The notes under the pieces are model-generated. The model had not been told where the DNA came from, ran no database searches, and saw only the letters and a program-made list of their open reading frames with translations. A program made the translations under genes and the position numbers. Positions 2,180 to 59,370 of a DNA stretch of 64,000 nucleotides are shown here, one piece after another. The stretch lies in the NCBI GenBank assembly GCA_028703305.1, contig JAQVNC010000003.1:5270-69269 (forward strand), written 5' to 3'. Each line of letters begins with the position of its first letter. Position 1 is the stretch's first letter. Origin of the DNA: Patescibacteria group bacterium (GTDB lineage: Bacteria > Patescibacteriota > Patescibacteriia > Patescibacteriales > GWC2-42-12).

Positions 2180-2602
2180 TTATTTGACCGTCAATAAAAC
2201 TATACTGATCGCTCCTAAAATCATGCCGGCTATAACTGTCGGACTTAAAGCCTCATTAAATAAAAAAACTCCAGCTAAAGCGCCTGCTAAAATCAAACCA
2301 ATCCCCTCTACCGGCATAGCCACGGATAATGGCGCGCCATATTTAAAAGCATAAAAGAAAAAAATCGTCCCCGAACCCAATAAAAGGCCAATCAATGCGG
2401 AAATGCCATAGCCCCTGGCTGAATGGTTTAAGCCGCCGTTAGACATAGCATAAATCACAAACGGGGCAACTATAATAACCTGGCTCACGGCCGCGACAAA
2501 CAAGGCTAAAAAATAGTTTATTTGATTGCCAATCACTTTAAAGAAAATATCATTGGCCGCCCAAACTAAAGTCGCTAATCCTAAAAAAATAACCCAAAGC
2601 AT
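2180..2602 (-). CDS. small EamA/DMT-superfamily-like integral membrane protein
   Basis: 140 aa, 4-5 predicted TM helices, Gly-rich helix pattern typical of single EamA-domain/SMR-like transporters. Confidence 0.55.
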   Translation of the reverse strand: MLWVIFLGLATLVWAANDIFFKVIGNQINYFLALFVAAVSQVIIVAPFVIYAMSNGGLNHSARGYGISALIGLLLGSGTIFFFYAFKYGAPLSVAMPVEGIGLILAGALAGVFLFNEALSPTVIAGMILGAISIVLLTVK

Positions 2603-2623
2603 AATTTTATTTTTATCATCAAG

Positions 2624-2721
2624 CTTGAGTTAAATTTACAAAATTTTCGTGCGAGGACTGTTTGAGCCCGAGTAATCTCGGGCGAGTTCCGCAGTAGAAA
2701 ATTTTATAAATTTAACTCAAG
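2624..2721 (+). repeat. family-A structured palindromic repeat, copy 1 (core ttttcgtgcgaggactgtttgag-hairpin-gagttccgcagtagaaaatt)
   Basis: The same core is seen at 25081, 25830 and 58580. The outer arms cttgagttaaattta/taaatttaactcaag are perfectly complementary. Confidence 0.9.
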
Positions 2722-2741
2722 GCCTACTGTCGTAATTAATA

Positions 2742-5579
2742 TTATTTAATCACAATATTTATTAATTTCCCTTTAACAAAAATTATCTTTATAACTTCTT
2801 TGCTCTCCAGCCATTTGTTAATTTTTTCGCTTTCTAAAGCGATTTTTTTCGCTTCATTTTCGCTAATATCAGCCGAAACTTCAATCATGTCGCGTACTTT
2901 GCCATTGATCTGAACTACTAAATTTATGGTTTCATCTTTAACCAAATCAGGATTAAACTCCGGCCATTTTTCTTTAAAAATACTTTCTTTATGCCCGATC
3001 CCAGACCACAGCTCTTCGGCCAAATGCGGCGCGAACGGGCTTAAAAGAATAATGAATAATGAATAATGAATAATGGAAATCTTTTCCTGTTCTCCCAACT
3101 TATTAGCCATTATCATTAAAGCTGAAATCGCGGTATTAAATTTAAAATATTCAATATCTTCACTAACTCTCTTTATGGTTTTATGTAATAATCTTTCTAG
3201 TTTATCATTCGTAATTCGTAATTCGTAATTCGTAATTCGTAATTGTAAATTAAAAACTTTTTCCAAGAATCTTCTAGCGCCGATAAGCCCGTTAGTGCTC
3301 CAGGCACAAGGCTGGGAAAACGGCCCCATAAACATTTCATAAACTCTCATGGAGTCAGCGCCAAATTTTTCCACGATTTCATCCGGATTAATTACGTTAT
3401 GCCAGCGCTTGCTCATCTTGCGGCCGTCCTCGGCTAAAATCAGACCGACATGCTGTAAGCGCGTAAACGGTTCGTCATAATTTACCGCGCCGATATCAAA
3501 CAAAAATTTATGCCAGAAGCGCGCGTAAATTAAATGCCGCGTGGCATGCTCGGCTCCGCCAACGTAAAAATCAACCGGCGACCAATATTTATCCTTGGCT
3601 TTATCAACCAGCGCTTTATCATTATACGGATCGATGTAACGCAAATAATACCAGCTTGACCCGGCCCATTGCGGCATGGTATTGGTTTCGCGCTTGGCAG
3701 ATCCGCCGCACTTCGGGCATTTTGTATTAACCCATTTTTCAATATTGGCCAGCGGCGACTCGCCAGTTCCGGTGGGCTCATAATTTTTTACTTCAGGGAG
3801 TTTTAAAGGCAGCTCATCACAAGGCACAGCCACATTGCCGCACTTAGGGCAATGCACAATCGGAATCGGCTCGCCCCAATATCTTTGCCTGGAAAATACC
3901 CAATCTTTTATTTTATAATTTATTGCTCGCTTGCCCAATTTTTTATTCTCCAGCCAGGCAGTCATTTTTTCTTTGGCCGCTTCAGTCTCCAGGCCGTTTA
4001 AAAAATCCGAATTAACACTAAGGCCATCGCCGCAATAAGCTGAATCTCCTTGTTTTAACCTTTGCCAAGCTAATTTTTGATTCCAAACATTAATAAAAGA
4101 TTCTATTTTTTCTTCCTCTACCCAAACTACTTCGTGTTGATCTTTTTCTTTTTGCGCCACCTCTTCTCTGCCCTCATTTTCCAATTCAAATAATAAATAC
4201 TTAAAACTGGCATAGACATTGGAATCTTTATGCGGTCGATAAAATTCAGCGAAAATTGAACCGCCGACTTGTTTAATAAATTTTAAATTTTTATAACCGG
4301 TTTCTTCTTTTACTTCACGCTTGGCTGCCGTAACCAAATCTTCGCCGTCCAGGCCACCGGTAGGAAAAGATTTCCAGTCAATGTTTTTCCATTTCAAACA
4401 TAAATACCGGTTATTTTTCAGATTTTTAACGATAGCCGTCACCACTTCCCGCTTTTCGGTTTCTTTATCCGGCCGCGGATCATCTTTTAAAAACGGAACA
4501 ATTACTTCCTTGATTGGTATATTATATTTTTTGGCGAACTCCCAATCCCGTTCGTCATGCGCCGGCACGGCCATAATCGCGCCGGTGCCATAGCCCATCA
4601 TCACATAATCGGCGATGTAGACCGGAATTTTTTCCCGGTTAACCGGGTTAATCGCGTAAGATCCGGTAAAGACGCCGGTTTTTTCTTTGGCTAATTCGGT
4701 CCTTTCCATGTCCGATTTGCCGGCGGCCGCTTTGATATATTTTTCCACTTCTTTCTTTTGTTCAGCCGTAGTTATTTTTTTAATTAGCGGGTGTTCCGGC
4801 GCCATAACAAAAAACGTCGCCCCGAATAAAGTGTCCGGCCGAGTAGTAAAAACCGTTGCAATTTCTTCGCCAATCTTAAAATTAACTTCAGCGCCTTCAC
4901 TCTTCCCAATCCAATTTTTCTGCATCTCTTTAATGGATTCTTCCCAGTCCGGCAGCTTTTCCAAATCATTCAACATTCTTTCCGCGTAATCGGTAATTTT
5001 TAAAACCCATTGGCGCATAGGTTTGCGTTCAATCACCGAACCGCAACGTTCACACTTGCCGTCTTCCAAATCTTCATTGGATAAAACGGTTTTGCAGCTC
5101 GGGCACCAGTTAACCGGCTCGTTTGATTCATAGGCCAAGCCGCGCTCAAACATTTTTATAAACGTCCACTGGGTCCATTTATAAAATTCCGGATCAGTAG
5201 TATTTATTTCCCGATTCCAATCATAAGTAAAGCCTAATTTTCCCAATTGCTTTTTAAAAGTATCAATATTTTTTTCCGTGGCGATTCTAGGATGAATTTT
5301 ATTTTGAATAGCGTAGTTTTCCGCCGGCAAGCCAAAAGCGTCCCAGCCCATGGGGTGAAGCACGTTATAGCCCTGCATCATCTTGGCGCGCGCGAAAATA
5401 TCCGTGGCGATATAACCTTTGGGATGCCCGACATGGAGCCCGGCGCCGGATGGATAAGGAAACATGTCTAAAATATAAAATTTAGGCTTGGTTTTATCTT
5501 CACCGGTCTGATACAATTTTTCTTTCTGCCAATGCTTCTGCCACTTTTGTTCTATTTTTTTATGGTCGTATTTCTCCAT
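2742..5579 (-). CDS. leuS: leucyl-tRNA synthetase with an inserted Nudix-like domain
   Basis: HVGHP (HIGH) motif, [12 protein letters not shown] editing-domain T-rich motif, [35 protein letters not shown]. Extra ~135 aa (aa ~375-510) carry REVKEETGY. Confidence 0.95.
3047..3074. repeat. (gaataat)x4 heptamer tandem run inside leuS coding sequence
   Basis: Direct reading. Translated in frame on the minus strand as ...IIHYSLFII... Confidence 0.9.
3207..3244. repeat. (attcgta)x5 heptamer tandem run inside leuS coding sequence
   Basis: Direct reading. Translated in frame on the minus strand as [12 protein letters not shown]. Imperfectly complementary to the 3047-3074 run. Confidence 0.9.
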
Positions 5580-6189: not shown

Positions 6190-6207
6190 GAATTTTAAAT
6201 TAAAATA

Positions 6208-6310
6208 GGCTCGGAGAGATTGCATTTATCGCGCATATAAAATTGTAGCATTTTTTTGCAAAAAAAAATGCACAAATTTTATCTAAGCGGAAATGTAATC
6301 TATCCGAGCC
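6208..6310. repeat. family-E repeat, full imperfect palindrome (~103 nt)
   Basis: Arms ggctcggagagattgcatttatcgcgcatataaaattgtagca / tgcacaaattttatctaagcggaaatgtaatctatccgagcc around a T7-gc-A9 centre. Minus-strand TGCTACAAT (6242-6250) faces the LigD-PE gene. Confidence 0.8.
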
Positions 6311-6324
6311 GATCTCTCAGATTT

Positions 6325-13181: not shown

Positions 13182-13264
13182 AATGAATAATGAATCACGA
13201 ATTATGAATAATGGGAAAATATTACATCAAAACTCCATAATTCATAATTCATTATTAATAATTC
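13182..13264. repeat. family-D heptamer-based palindrome (aatgaataatgaa...gg / cc...ttcataattcattatt)
   Basis: Arms built from gaataat/gaattat heptads facing their complements across a ~20-nt loop. Related to 59285-59370 and to the runs inside leuS. Confidence 0.8.
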
Positions 13265-14220: not shown

Positions 14221-14303
14221 GCTTTCCGAGCGCATACGAAATTGTAGCTTTTTTTCTAAAAATCTTTTAGAAAAAATGCCCAAATTTTATTTAAGCAGGG
14301 AAA
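14221..14303. repeat. family-E related palindromic repeat
   Basis: gctttccgagcgcatacgaaattgtagc - ttttttctaaaaatcttttagaaaaaa - tgcccaaattttatttaagcagggaaa. The arms are homologous to 6221-6290. Confidence 0.7.
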
Positions 14304-23732: not shown

Positions 23733-23746
23733 AATTTATCCTTTTT

Positions 23747-23797
23747 GTAACTCATAGCTCGCAACCCGCAACTCTTAAGTTACGAGCTATGAGTTAC
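23747..23797. repeat. 15-bp perfect inverted repeat built from gagttac-type heptads
   Basis: gtaactcatagctcg ... cgagctatgagttac, followed by gagttgtgag. Lies between the murE start and the femX-like stop. Confidence 0.8.
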
Positions 23798-23808
23798 GAG
23801 TTGTGAGG

Positions 23809-24903: not shown

Positions 24904-25080
24904 ATAATTGACAAAATTATTCTAATCACCTAAATTATCACTAACAGGATTAGGTGCAATGCGGCATTAAAACAAATGACAAAGCTCAAACCCATTGAAA
25001 GCGAGTGGGTATGCTTACGTCAAAAAGATGCCAATGACCATTTAATCCTGCTTTTCTTTTTTGCAGATATCGCTTATGGA

Positions 25081-25178
25081 TTGGGGATAAATTTGTAAAA
25101 TTTTCGTGCGAGGACTGTTTGAGCCCCGCGGTAGCGGGGCGAGTTCCGCAGTAGAAAATTTAATAAATTTATCCCCAA
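25081..25178 (+). repeat. family-A structured palindromic repeat, copy 2
   Basis: Same core. Apical stem gccccgc/gcggggc. Outer arms ttggggataaattt/aaatttatccccaa. Confidence 0.9.
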
Positions 25179-25829: not shown

Positions 25830-25929
25830 AATGGGGCTGAATTTGTTAAATTTTCGTGCGAGGACTGTTTGAGGCCGCCGACAGGCGGCCGAGTTCCGCA
25901 GTAGAAAATTTAATAAATTCAGCCCCATT
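25830..25929 (+). repeat. family-A structured palindromic repeat, copy 3
   Basis: Same core. Apical stem ggccgcc/ggcggcc. Outer arms aatggggctgaattt/aaattcagccccatt. Confidence 0.9.
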
Positions 25930-54632: not shown

Positions 54633-56138
54633 TTACTTAAACACCTGCGCCGTAAATATTAAAATTTGCGTGTCTTTATCTTTGTAGCAGCCGGGCGAGA
54701 GTCCGGCCTTTTGCCAGCAAAGCTCGGACAAAAATTCTTCTAAACTCCAGCTGGTTTCCGTGGCTACTTGCGGTAAAAATACGCCGCTCCGGCCGCTCTT
54801 CTTTATTATCACGCCATGTTTGCCTAATTTAATTTTACGCCAGTCATCAATTGGTTCGGGCGTTGATAAAACGCTTATTTCGTATTTCAGCTTGCTTAAT
54901 TCATCTTTACTTACCGGATTAAAACGGCCGTCTTCACTGCAAGCGGCTACAGCCATGTCGCGCACCACTTGCCACAGCGGTTCGTCGGTCGGCACAATCT
55001 GGCCGATACAACCGCGCAGTTGCCCGCCCTTAGTTAAGGTCACGAACGCGCCCTGCTTTTTATTTAATCCTTCATCACTAATTTCAAATTCAGGCATCTC
55101 GCCATTATTTAAGAAATTTTCCACTGTCTGTTTAGCAATATTTAAAAGTTTTTTCTTTTGCTCATCGCTTAACTCATTTTGCATTTTGATATTTGCATTT
55201 TTCATTTGAGCGATAGCGACCGCACCATACCCAACCACTTGGCTTTTGTCGCCAACGCCGGGCGCGTCGCCGCTATTTAAGTATTTTAAAATTTCAATTT
55301 TATCCCAGCCGGCCAAATTTGCTAATTCCATAACCGTCTTAACCGCGTCAATGCCGCAAAGCGCGGTTTGCTCATTAGCATAATCTGAATTTTCCACGCT
55401 GTCCACATAATCGGCCAAAGCTTCAACCTTGCCGCTTTTTATTTTCTCTAAAGTTTCCTTATCAATTTTATTGGCGTCTTCATATTTCGGGTAATGCGAC
55501 ATGTCGCTGGAAATAATTACCAGATCATCCGGCCCTAAATTATCTTTTAAGCTTCTGGCTAATTTTTTATACGTTCCGTCGTCTTTATTGCCAACCTCAA
55601 TCGGCACGATTTTAAAATCATTTTTTAAAACAGTCTGTAAAAACGGCAATTGGACTTCAATGTTATGGTCTTTTTGATGAACCGCGCCGTCGTATTTAAT
55701 GGCGCTATTGGCCTTAACTAATTTGTCGGCCAAAACTTTATCAACCGCAACTTGGTCTAAAGGCGTCTGCCAGGCATCGCTTGAATCAATGGCCGCGCCG
55801 TCAAAATAAGCCTGATGGGAATTGCTGATAATCACGGCTGTATTTATTTTTTTGCCTGCGCCTTCAAGCGCTTTAAAGGCATAAGCCGCCACCAAGCCGC
55901 TAAAATCATAGCCGGCATGCGGCACGATTATAGCCTTAATCTCACCTTCAATCTTTTGCTTCGGCGCTTGTTTTAAATATCTCTGGATTTGCTCGGTGAT
56001 CGCGCCCGGCTCTTTAGGATAAAATTGCCCGGCCACGGCGGCCGATTTGATTTTTTTAGGCATATTATTAGTCGCCTGCTTCTGGCCGCAGGCGGTTAAA
56101 AATATTAAAGCTAACAATAAAAATAATAATTTCTTCAT
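54633..56138 (-). CDS. MEMO1-like (AmmeMemoRadiSam protein B) / AMMECR1 (protein A) fusion with lipoprotein-type signal
   Basis: N-terminus MKKLLFLLLALIFLTAC. Memo part AGQFYP...IVPHAGYDFSG...SSDMSHY. AMMECR1 part GAFVTLTKGGQLRGCIGQI...DGRFNPV...GVFLPQVA. Confidence 0.8.
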   Translation of the reverse strand: MKKLLFLLLALIFLTACGQKQATNNMPKKIKSAAVAGQFYPKEPGAITEQIQRYLKQAPKQKIEGEIKAIIVPHAGYDFSGLVAAYAFKALEGAGKKINTAVIISNSHQAYFDGAAIDSSDAWQTPLDQVAVDKVLADKLVKANSAIKYDGAVHQKDHNIEVQLPFLQTVLKNDFKIVPIEVGNKDDGTYKKLARSLKDNLGPDDLVIISSDMSHYPKYEDANKIDKETLEKIKSGKVEALADYVDSVENSDYANEQTALCGIDAVKTVMELANLAGWDKIEILKYLNSGDAPGVGDKSQVVGYGAVAIAQMKNANIKMQNELSDEQKKKLLNIAKQTVENFLNNGEMPEFEISDEGLNKKQGAFVTLTKGGQLRGCIGQIVPTDEPLWQVVRDMAVAACSEDGRFNPVSKDELSKLKYEISVLSTPEPIDDWRKIKLGKHGVIIKKSGRSGVFLPQVATETSWSLEEFLSELCWQKAGLSPGCYKDKDTQILIFTAQVFK

Positions 56139-56147
56139 GCAAAAAAA

Positions 56148-56921
56148 TTATTTATTCATTGCCCTTAAAATCTGCGTCTGCACTTTGCCGTTGGAAGCCG
56201 CGATATCGGAATCGCCTAAACGCCAGTCTCGGCCGGTAAAATCAGTTACTTTGCCGCCGGCTTCGCGCACTAAAAGCACGCCCGCGGCTACGTCCCAGTC
56301 GTGCGTGCCCGGCGCCACGAACGATTCCACTCGGCCGGAAGCCACGTAAGAGAGCTCCAGCGCCGCCGAACCCATCTGCCGGCAATCCAATTCGTTTAAT
56401 TTTTGCTTGCGCCAATAAGCCAAAGCTTTTTTAATATCAACATCTTCACGGCCATGGCAAAAAGTATTTAGAACTTTTCCTTGGCTGATTTTAGAAACAA
56501 AAATTTTTCGGCCGTTTAGCTCGGCGCCCTGGCCGATTTGAGCAATATATATTTCTTTAAGCATGGGCGCGTAAATCAAACCGAAAATCAATTCATCATT
56601 TTTAGCCAAGGCCATGGAGATTGACCACAACGGATTATGCATGGAAAAATTAGTGGTGCCGTCAATCGGATCAAGATACCAACAATATTCGGAATAATTT
56701 TTTTCATTGGCCTTTTCCTCGGAAATAATGCCATGCGCTGGAAAATACTTTCTAATTTCATTAATTAGAATTTCCTGTGACATTAAATCGCACTTGGTTA
56801 AAATTTCATGGTGCGATTTTAACATAATTTGCCCGCGGTCAAATTTCTCATATTCTCTTTTTAACATCTCGCCGGCTGGCTTAGCCGCGCTTAAAGCCAC
56901 TTTTTTTATTTGTTTGTCCAT
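56148..56921 (-). CDS. inositol monophosphatase family protein (SuhB/CysQ-like)
   Basis: WYLDPIDGTTNF and DWDVAAGVLLVREAGG motifs. Confidence 0.85.
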   Translation of the reverse strand: MDKQIKKVALSAAKPAGEMLKREYEKFDRGQIMLKSHHEILTKCDLMSQEILINEIRKYFPAHGIISEEKANEKNYSEYCWYLDPIDGTTNFSMHNPLWSISMALAKNDELIFGLIYAPMLKEIYIAQIGQGAELNGRKIFVSKISQGKVLNTFCHGREDVDIKKALAYWRKQKLNELDCRQMGSAALELSYVASGRVESFVAPGTHDWDVAAGVLLVREAGGKVTDFTGRDWRLGDSDIAASNGKVQTQILRAMNK

Positions 56922-58579: not shown

Positions 58580-58679
58580 AATTGGGCTAAATTTGTTTAA
58601 TTTTCGTGCGAGGACTGTTTGAGCCCGAGTACTCTCGGGCGAGTTCCGCAGTAGAAAATTTAATAAATTTAGCCCAATT
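58580..58679 (+). repeat. family-A structured palindromic repeat, copy 4
   Basis: Same core. Apical stem gcccgag/ctcgggc with loop tact. Outer arms aattgggctaaattt/aaatttagcccaatt. Confidence 0.9.
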
Positions 58680-58707: not shown

Positions 58708-59280
58708 TTATTTCCTTAAATTTATCTCGTAATTTATCTGCTCAATTTTCCTTAAATGGCCCTTGGCCTGATCATATTTGGTGCGCAGATAGCTTCTCAT
58801 ATCAAATTCCACCAATTCCGCCATAACATCATCCGCGATTTTATGAATTTTTTTAACTTCTTCATATTTGCCTAAAGTGGCCATCTTGACGGCCCAACGG
58901 ACCAACTCGCCCAGCAAGTCGCTAATGCCTCCGAGATAACTTTCATAGTCAACTTCCAGGCCTTTAATTTTATCAACCGTCTTGCCGGTCATCACTAGAA
59001 AAAACATCTTAGCTTCAACATATTCTTCGGCGGCCGCCCTGTACGCGCCCTCTTCTCCGAGCCGCGAATAGCTGAATTTTTTTTGCAAATTTTTTAAGAC
59101 GCCGTCAATTTCCTCAAGCGTTTTGCCCGCTCCGGACAAATCGCCGCGGTGCAATGAAAAAATCGCTTTTTTAGCATCATGCAAAACTACATTGGATAAA
59201 CCGATAATTTGCTGGCGCTCTTTGCCGTGAGCATCAAACTCTTTTTTTAACTGCTGAATGAATTTTTTGTTAATCATCAA
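58708..59280 (-). CDS. translin-family protein
   Basis: AAEEYVEAKMFF, SYLGGISDLLGELVRWAV and LRTKYDQAKGHLRKIEQINYE follow the translin pattern (qEyvEA..f...YL.Gl.DltGEl.R..LR.K.D). Confidence 0.6.
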   Translation of the reverse strand: MMINKKFIQQLKKEFDAHGKERQQIIGLSNVVLHDAKKAIFSLHRGDLSGAGKTLEEIDGVLKNLQKKFSYSRLGEEGAYRAAAEEYVEAKMFFLVMTGKTVDKIKGLEVDYESYLGGISDLLGELVRWAVKMATLGKYEEVKKIHKIADDVMAELVEFDMRSYLRTKYDQAKGHLRKIEQINYEINLRK

Positions 59281-59284
59281 ATTT

Positions 59285-59370
59285 GAATTATGAATAATGA
59301 ATAATGAATTATGGGCGAATGCTTATATTTCGGCATTTTACCATTATTCATTATTCGTAATTCATTATTC
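59285..59370. repeat. family-D heptamer-based palindrome
   Basis: gaattatgaataatgaataatgaattatgg - 26-nt loop - ccattattcattattcgtaattcattattc. Confidence 0.85.

Follow-up and report, generated by a model that had tools for sequence, protein, structure and literature searches.

Extragenic hairpin repeats such as repetitive extragenic palindromic (REP) sequences, REPINs, bacterial interspersed mosaic elements (BIMEs) and miniature inverted-repeat transposable elements (MITEs) are known, and each family is limited to a narrow lineage. Genomes of the candidate phyla radiation (CPR; Patescibacteria) are about 1 Mb in size and are expected to hold little repeat DNA; no extragenic hairpin family from CPR bacteria is reported in the literature that we searched or is otherwise known to us. 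According to two papers, REPIN and REP sequences can persist vertically (PMC3116915; PMC8266576). Here we describe a hairpin repeat from a 64,000-nt stretch of a Patescibacteria group bacterium (assembly GCA_028703305.1, contig JAQVNC010000003.1, positions 5,270 to 69,269 of the forward strand), hereafter called the window. Repeats of this kind, about 100 bp long and non-coding, fill short gaps just past stop codons in several Patescibacteria genomes, and their centre recurs in other bacterial phyla.

Four copies of the element lie on the plus strand of the window in the same orientation, at 2624–2721 (copy 1), 25081–25178 (copy 2), 25830–25929 (copy 3) and 58580–58679 (copy 4). They had been proposed in an earlier note made from the sequence, and exact matching recovered all of them; an unfiltered search of the window with a covariance model based on 36 family members returned the same four copies and nothing else above noise. 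The segments that had been called invariant proved to be so: the 23-mer TTTTCGTGCGAGGACTGTTTGAG and the 21-mer GAGTTCCGCAGTAGAAAATTT have exactly four occurrences each, and no near-miss of both conserved segments at up to three mismatches was found in the window (0 expected from 100 shuffles). In copy 1, the 5′ half of the core, GAGGACTGTTTGAG, occupies 2653–2666, the variable apical hairpin P2 (GCCCGAG-TAAT-CTCGGGC) 2666–2683 and the 3′ half, CGAGTTCCGCA, 2683–2693. The core halves lie at 25110–25123 and 25140–25150 in copy 2, at 25860–25873 and 25890–25900 in copy 3 and at 58610–58623 and 58640–58650 in copy 4, and the P2 variant of copy 1 recurs at loci L021, L032 and L040. One long hairpin is formed by each copy, with energies of −45.6 to −61.4 kcal/mol and z-scores of −8.9 to −11; folding is strong for the complementary, gene-sense strand as well (−41 to −52 kcal/mol). 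The 7-bp apical stems and the outer 8–11 bp vary among the copies yet pair perfectly in each, in agreement with the earlier note.

A scan of one genome per species with an exact 19-mer from the 5′ core yielded 41 loci. About 36 of them are true copies, located in seven CPR metagenome-assembled genomes (MAGs), namely Falkowbacteria JACQYU, ‘ELA500’ JBAXOH, Parcubacteria JACPHD and LCCP01, JAUSGE, JAUSEG and JAZDFM, and further divergent copies occur beyond those; one locus is on the chromosome of the gammaproteobacterium Motiliproteus, and four look like chance matches (about 4 being expected for a 19-mer). The element is a multi-copy hairpin-repeat family in several Patescibacteria MAGs. In the alignment of 36 copies, 93.5% of the cells were paired and double-sided changes were present in 24 of the 39 pairs; these values were reached in none of 500 shuffles, and sliding the partners by 1–3 columns left at most 54% paired. 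Column variability is highest in the outermost 10 bp and the centre is invariant, with the 3′ core half, which was outside the genome-scan pattern, intact in 33 of the 36 aligned copies. P2 is expanded to approximately 70–100 nt in L003, L013 and L035, an extra stem occurs at the exact point between GAGTTCC and GCAG in L017, L029 and L004 (3218–3368), and a minimal form consists of CTGTTTGAG-[P2]-CGAGTTC only (L011, 391–481; L090, 7403–7485). Two more arm subfamilies are characterized by ...TAATGGCAAATTT and by ...TTTTGAAGT/CAACGAAAA, respectively. A full-length parent element was sought among the long variants (L003, L013, L035 and L029), which turned out to be expanded P2 or extra stems and to hold no open reading frame (ORF), and among inverted pairs about 1.4 kb apart (L061 and L114), which enclose ordinary hypothetical genes and no transposase. 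A micro-ORF of 11 codons (UUG...UAG) that is in frame in the window copies was discarded, as P2 lengths elsewhere differ by non-multiples of three.

The core reads C-GAGGACUGUYUGAG-[hairpin]-CGAGUUCCGCA-G; it is 25 nt long and asymmetric. It constitutes the invariant centre between a variable stem, P1 (~25 bp), and the variable P2, so that the shared unit can be written as P1 - GA - [GGACU] - GUYUGA - [P2] - G - [AGUUC] - CGCA - P1′. Cross-family covariation sets the pairing register: in 167 instances among the matches listed, the pair at the base of the core (the nucleotide before GAGGAC with the nucleotide after CCGCA) was C-G in 153, U-A in 9 and G-C in 1, the next two P1 pairs covaried as well (95% and 86% paired), and all other registers failed. 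In this register the fixed loops place GA across from CGCA and GUYUGA across from G; these two asymmetric internal loops, on opposite strands, flank a 5-bp helix with a G·U (G·T in DNA). In the earlier note, GUYUGA opposite G had been drawn in the same way and stands, but the other loop had been placed differently, and the tgcg/cgca pairing that it had proposed between the conserved arms is one register off, being possible in the CPR subfamily and not general. Because the GGACU/AGUUC helix is invariant in these data, covariation speaks neither for nor against it. Beside the closing pair of P2, G46-A47 and G75-A76 could, as a pattern match, form tandem sheared pairs (G46·A76 and A47·G75). Natural variation, as seen in copies not forced by the search pattern, comprises GTCTGAG (common), GTCCGAG and CCGTAG, and is thus limited to two loop positions (GUCUGAG, GUCCGAG) and CCGUA.

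The Motiliproteus copy has the same 19 + 12 nt core and the same architecture, with unrelated arms. A metagenome scan with the pattern GAGGACTGTTTGAG-N(8-38)-CGAGTTCCG gave at least 120 loci, and all loci pooled amounted to at least 169 distinct instances in at least 86 clusters (80% identity); among the matches listed, at least 26 clusters are CPR-like and at least 60 are others. In these matches, the GC content of the locus ranges from 0.27 to 0.66, the contigs are up to 2.6 Mb long and some come from human gut metagenomes, the core lies within a longer hairpin in every instance, and arm GC follows locus GC (r = 0.77). This correlation indicates that the arms have had long enough to become adjusted to the individual host, with no change in the core. 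Judged from these sequences, the core is not lineage-specific; it is an old module common to many lineage-specific hairpin repeat families, including those of other bacterial phyla. It was absent from 5,426 E. coli genomes, 50,697 phage records and 72,556 plasmids, where only chance partial matches were obtained, and from 2.9 million IMG/VR contigs; as no copy was present in the phage, plasmid and IMG/VR collections, it is not a phage or plasmid feature. When a longer GC-rich mosaic element was compared with plasmids, the only match, in Ilyobacter, was to an unrelated module. Outside CPR, the copies are always intergenic and their orientation relative to genes is mixed. No real recurrent neighbour family was detected among 1,108 ORFs within 2.5 kb of the copies, and the largest cluster of neighbouring ORFs consisted of spurious ORFs read across the repeat itself.

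In other lineages the module is found in mosaics that include further hairpins. A second module of cross-lineage occurrence, also a hairpin, GGTTACTTTCTTTTGG...CAAAAGAAAGTAAC, follows the core hairpin in several lineages; this second module, GGTTACTTT(C)TTTTGG...CAAAA(G)AAAGTAAC, is often 30–120 nt from the core element (L081, L082, L060, L120 and L164), occurs in loci of 27–59% GC and also in the CPR relative L164 (gap 2486–3001), and is a source of spurious ORFs. GC-rich families show direct CGAG-NNN-CGCAG(G) boxes on both sides of the hairpin, resembling the 3′ core half (CGAG-TTC-CGCAG), with three or four boxes per unit in one orientation; loci with such bracketing boxes include L042, L047, L052, L061, L081, L104, L107, L112–L114, L118, L125, L153, L155 and others. 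The Motiliproteus locus (L009) has a ~190-nt non-coding unit duplicated ~440–490 nt apart (2640–2833 and 3082–3326) within a 1.4-kb gene-free region; the core hairpin follows the first unit only, and the units have no Rfam match. L055 contains three tandem units of at least 400 nt (9751, 10448 and 10876), each with a core hairpin, 3′ of a two-component system. The kinase/regulator cluster of neighbouring ORFs to which L055 belongs also holds L027, L053, L058, L068, L115 and L136, a grouping that was read from sequence and may be due to chance.

All four window copies occupy gaps between co-directional minus-strand genes, as had been stated before, and the stop codon of the right-hand gene is 16–28 nt from the end of the element. 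In gene sense, copy 1 is 20 nt 3′ of the stop codon (2742) of the leucyl-tRNA synthetase (LeuRS) gene and 21 nt 5′ of the start (2602) of an EamA-family transporter gene. Copy 2 lies 16 nt past the RuvA stop, between RuvA and a FemAB-family protein; copy 3 lies 21 nt past the stop of a DUF7544 protein, with RuvA on its other side; and copy 4 lies 28 nt past the stop of a translin-family protein and is followed by an amino-acid permease. In 33 of 40 CPR copies the right neighbour is likewise an opposite-strand gene whose stop codon is 4–40 nt away. The orientation bias is pronounced, with coding mostly opposite to the element strand in 50 CPR-like loci and on the same strand in seven; in CPR, the plus strand is antisense to the neighbouring genes.

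The RuvA neighbourhoods of four relatives (L162–L165; RuvA identity 82–86%, same gene order) allowed the intergenic gaps to be compared. Between the DUF7544 gene and ruvA, the window has copy 3, L089 a member of the GAAGT subfamily and L162–L165 an intrinsic terminator, AAAAGAGC...GCTCTTTT, which takes the place of copy 3 with similar spacers on both sides. The gap between ruvA and femAB holds copy 2 in the window and orthologous copies in L051 and L089, with similar arms and a wholly different P2, and is empty in L162, L164 and L165. L163 has at this site (3626–3698) a hairpin with arms like those of the present family (AAATTTTAT...ATAAAATTT) and another centre (AGCGGGCAAAGCCCTACGGCC), which possibly represents a sibling family built on a different core. 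In the gap between femAB and the mur ligase gene, L162 alone among the relatives has a GAAGT-subfamily copy; the window has there a different, 60-nt near-perfect hairpin (23741–23803), and the three other relatives are empty. The orthologue of copy 4 in L022 differs from it in arms and P2, being closer to copy 2, and at this site the flanks are 67–84% identical and the core 100% identical. The window genes for a Memo-AMMECR1 fusion and an inositol monophosphatase (54633–56921) are missing from the syntenic region of L022 (3312–3364). One further orthologous site carries two arm subfamilies (L003 versus L005), and the same P2 (CCCGAGTAATCTCGGG) or the same arm sequence was observed at unrelated sites in different genomes.

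Because orthologous sites are variously filled, empty, swapped between subfamilies or replaced by a terminator, the element is turnover-prone repeat DNA and not a fixed gene. Since arm and P2 variants recur at non-orthologous sites and subfamilies are exchanged, the covariation reflects a hairpin constraint on a spreading family. The earlier note had spoken of compensatory changes in the stems; all stems do pair, but the changes are mostly differences between subfamilies and not evolution in place. Its argument against a classical MITE was upheld, because conserved terminal inverted repeats are lacking, conservation is lowest at the termini (the outermost 10 bp) and no target-site duplication can be seen.

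We examined which strand folds. The plus strand folds better than its complement in three of the four window copies, and the same holds for 14 of 18 other families. The invariant G·T of the core and the C(GNA)G triloops described below point to this strand as well. When all instances were folded with G·U disallowed and isolated 1 × 1 mismatches outside the core were tallied, G·T/T·G mismatches outnumbered A·C/C·A mismatches by 60 to 26 among the matches listed (35 to 16 with one per cluster; 29 clusters against 10). Better folding and the G·T excess together argue that a single-stranded fold of the plus strand is under selection, although a strand-biased mutation spectrum could also be a source of this excess; both results agree with the strand preference that the earlier note had derived from a single wobble pair. 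The GC skew of the plus strand is negative throughout the window, also where genes are on that strand; with this skew and the minus-strand genes, the plus strand is the template (transcribed) strand and the leading-strand template. The apical loops of 141 distinct P2 hairpins bear on the chemical nature of the fold: among the matches listed, 66 of 130 are triloops and 32 of these 66 are C(GNA)G (GCA 19, GAA 8, GTA 5), and GNRA and UNCG tetraloops are rare. Mini-hairpins of the type d[C(GNA)G] are reported to be hyper-stable in DNA (thermodynamic work of Hirao and of Yoshizawa). In natural RNAs, GNRA/UUCG loops are usually abundant in the variable stems. The arms are near-perfect palindromes of 20–30 bp. 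Five or more U within the next 8 nt were found in seven of 73 clusters on the plus strand and in 10 of 73 on the minus strand (matches listed), which is no enrichment. Taken together, the triloops, the long near-perfect arms, the lack of a U-tract excess and the turnover favour a DNA hairpin. The earlier note had offered a structured RNA or a protein-recognized cruciform; the hairpin, the invariant asymmetric core and the paired variable stems were retained, and the RNA half of that proposal lost ground to the DNA-type loops and the long near-perfect arms. The orientation bias can fit both DNA and RNA by survivorship, if copies last where the active fold rarely forms.

Comparisons with known families gave no assignment. 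Rfam 15 had no match at the gathering threshold in the window, in keeping with the earlier statement that no known RNA family was recognized, and its matches at E < 10 around copies 2 and 3 were noise; for 30 loci of other lineages, including Motiliproteus and the GC-rich and human-gut-metagenome families, nothing was obtained with permissive or gathering thresholds. The literature searched contained no relevant description of the core sequence as DNA or RNA, of CPR repeats or of CPR structured RNAs, and the Minerva preprint concerns other elements. To our knowledge, there is no convincing match to tRNA, tmRNA, the signal recognition particle RNA, RNase P or an rRNA fragment. An intrinsic terminator was rejected, since the hairpin has no U-tract on either strand of any window copy (as the earlier note had concluded), U-tract counts are low and genuine terminators occur elsewhere in the window.

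The likenesses to mobile hairpins are closer. As in REPIN and REP sequences, the copies are extragenic multi-copy hairpins of about 100 nt that follow genes, show structure-preserving paired changes, are non-autonomous and orientation-biased; REPs are thought to act as folded single-stranded DNA. However, a REPIN consists of two inverted conserved REPs of 20–40 nt and a variable spacer, whereas here it is the arms that vary and the asymmetric centre that is conserved. REP sequences are also species-specific, whereas the present core spans phyla, and the REP tag GTAG/CGTC is terminal, whereas here GTAG is on the 3′ side in the CPR subfamily only (CAGTAG) and is replaced elsewhere by CAGCC and others. 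No REP-associated tyrosine transposase (RAYT or TnpA_REP, the Y1 HUH transposase that mobilizes REPs and whose gene they usually flank) was found among 40 scanned window proteins or the ORFs within 2.5 kb of the copies. The integron attC site is likewise an imperfect hairpin read on one strand, in which fixed unpaired or extrahelical bases give strand choice and the terminal structure is of variable length; it too lies just past a stop codon, and the strand that folds is antisense to the gene and belongs to the leading-strand template. In contrast to attC, the element lacks R″/R′ boxes (RYYYAAC...GTTRRRY), its hairpin bases being (A)G(A/T)TTGG...CCAA(T/A)C(T) in CPR and different in each other family; attC is conserved at the base of the hairpin and the element at the centre, and attC sites form a tandem cassette array beside intI, whereas the copies here are 0.7–33 kb apart among the housekeeping genes for LeuRS, RuvA, FemAB and others. 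BIME, ERIC, Correia and MITE repeats share with the element their intergenic palindromic nature, their mosaics with other hairpins and their presence or absence between close relatives; unlike them, the element has neither conserved terminal inverted repeats nor target-site duplications, and each of those families stays within one genus or family, whereas the core crosses phyla.

On balance we tentatively favour, at a probability that we would place just short of even, a REPIN/BIME-like non-autonomous DNA hairpin repeat whose core is recognized as folded single-stranded DNA. The plus strand would fold as single-stranded DNA, and a conserved trans-acting protein would use both fixed internal loops, together with the invariant G·T, as a handle for hairpin recognition and strand choice. 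The partner would be a single-strand-specific recombinase, transposase or nuclease, acting as IntI does in reading attC or RAYT in reading REP, and through this recognition the element would be copied, replaced or maintained. As the arms need only to pair, they drift to the base composition of the host. Several observations weigh against this view. No transposase, integrase or HUH enzyme was present in the 40 of ~55 window genes that were scanned, and none recurs near the copies. REP/RAYT, attC and IS200/IS605 ends are lineage-specific in sequence, and a 25-nt core unchanged all the way from CPR to Gammaproteobacteria fits a structured RNA better; an optional stem at one exact core position and growth of P2 to ~100 nt are typical RNA-family traits. 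As both leading-strand template and transcribed strand, the plus strand is the one least exposed as single-stranded DNA. At the two sites that are empty in the comparison of the window with L162–L165, neither a target-site duplication nor a clean insertion boundary was apparent. Finally, the collection scans demanded exact core matches, so the invariance of the core is partly by construction.

A broader proposal, which we regard as distinctly possible though short of an even chance, is that the 25-nt module GAGGACUGUYUGAG...CGAGUUCCGCA is an ancient undescribed motif, either a structured RNA of a new class (acting as a self-cleaving ribozyme or as a universal module for protein binding) or the recognition hairpin of a hitherto overlooked single-strand recombination system. 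Such a motif would be shared from Patescibacteria to Gammaproteobacteria and human-gut metagenome contigs and would have been the repeated seed of lineage-specific repeat families. The RNA option taken by itself, in which the core is a plus-strand structured RNA, either a kink-turn-like protein-binding element or a new self-cleaving ribozyme, carried by or spawning the repeats, is the main rival of the DNA reading and seems to us unlikely but worth serious consideration. It is consistent with 25 nt of asymmetric loops that are invariant across phyla between covarying helices, with the invariant G·U and the excess of G·U over A·C, with natural variation confined to two loop positions and CCGUA, with a minimal variant that retains the inner loop alone and with an optional third stem at one fixed position; one human-gut metagenome family ends in a plus-strand U-tract. 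In this case most of the surviving CPR copies would be antisense to operons, since a sense copy would put the active fold in the mRNA. The loops could match a kink-turn, 5′-...C-NNNNN-GA-G / C-GA-G...3′, with two possible sheared G·A pairs by a C-G closed helix; in this sequence pattern GA/GA and the C-G closing pair are invariant and the variable positions fall in the bulge, but the bulge would have to be 5 nt instead of the usual 3 nt, and we know of no L7Ae-type partner in most carrier phyla. Likewise, an invariant loop core between variable stems, optional stems and scattered multi-copy occurrence in metagenomes recall small self-cleaving ribozymes (hammerhead, twister, pistol, hatchet), and a scattered multi-copy distribution is known for bacterial hammerhead and twister ribozymes. 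Unlike these, the element matches no Rfam ribozyme model and has an atypically long perfect outer helix. A hammerhead in particular was rejected, as CUGANGA...GAAA is expected and the core (CUGUYUGA...GAGUU) differs at catalytic positions, and no Rfam hammerhead match was obtained; a three-way junction, of which the hammerhead core has one, is formed in rare variants only. More generally, an RNA has to be reconciled with the lack of any kind of Rfam match, with terminator-like U-tracts that are not enriched on either strand, with near-perfect duplex arms of 20–30 bp that are unusual for a functional RNA and an RNase III substrate, with apical loops of the DNA-type GNA kind instead of GNRA/UNCG and, in CPR, with antisense transcription from 20–60 nt gaps in housekeeping operons.

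Two further explanations dispense with a fold of the plus strand or with a partner. A host-useful cis element of the minus-strand mRNA, such as an intercistronic stabilizer, a processing site or a terminator substitute of the sort proposed for REP, ERIC and BIME, is in our estimate quite improbable. The start of the element 4–40 nt past a stop codon in fixed orientation in 33 of 40 CPR copies, the placement of copy 3 at the intrinsic-terminator site of four relatives, between similar spacers, and the strong fold of the gene-sense strand are what it would explain well; yet no gene-sense U-tract follows the hairpin and normal terminators exist elsewhere in the organism, all strand-specific signals favour the other strand, a stabilizer needs no 25-nt invariant asymmetric core, close relatives lack the element at the same sites and the orientation is mixed outside CPR. 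Least probable of all, in our judgement, are functionless, partner-free palindromes that recombination or template switching between hairpins spreads and homogenizes, with the core a frozen accident of descent or horizontal transfer. Quasi-palindrome correction by template switching keeps arms complementary without selection, and the replacement of subfamilies at the same sites resembles gene conversion; but template switching would erase the three core asymmetries, which are invariant in at least 86 clusters while the arms drift to host GC, and at orthologous sites the core (100%) exceeds the flanking genes (67–84%) in identity. The single-stranded DNA repeat therefore remains the reading that we prefer, at the tentative level given above.

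The window contains further features that are separate from this element. A second hairpin repeat family with ATGAATAATGAAT-type arms, unrelated to the core, sits in other intergenic gaps at 59280–59368 and 13185–13257 (−38 and −15 kcal/mol, respectively). A third family, with arms AAATTGTAGC(A/T)TTTTTT...AAATTTTAT, occurs at 6200–6318 and 14237–14289, the former copy being within a ~120-nt perfect palindrome (−51.5 kcal/mol). A conserved leader of ~150 nt precedes the FemAB-family gene (24904–25050, minus strand; 3590–3740 in L165); it shows long-range pairing, CAGGATTAA...TAATCCTG, is kept in a relative that lacks copy 2, has no Rfam match and is a possible cis-regulatory RNA of a tRNA-dependent peptidyl transferase. 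The 945-aa LeuRS (2742–5579, minus strand) has a NUDIX-domain match at residues 398–492 (E = 5.8e-12), just past the editing domain.

The repeats described here would account for a class of spurious ORFs that lie over them in GC-rich genomes. Arms adapted to their hosts in at least 86 clusters, set against a centre that is identical across phyla, imply a conserved and so far unnamed partner or activity. If the module is RNA, it would be a common motif that Rfam does not contain, and a ribozyme or a protein-binding element would be its candidate roles; if instead the partner is a protein that acts on single-stranded DNA, the repeats would belong to a widely distributed mobile-DNA system.

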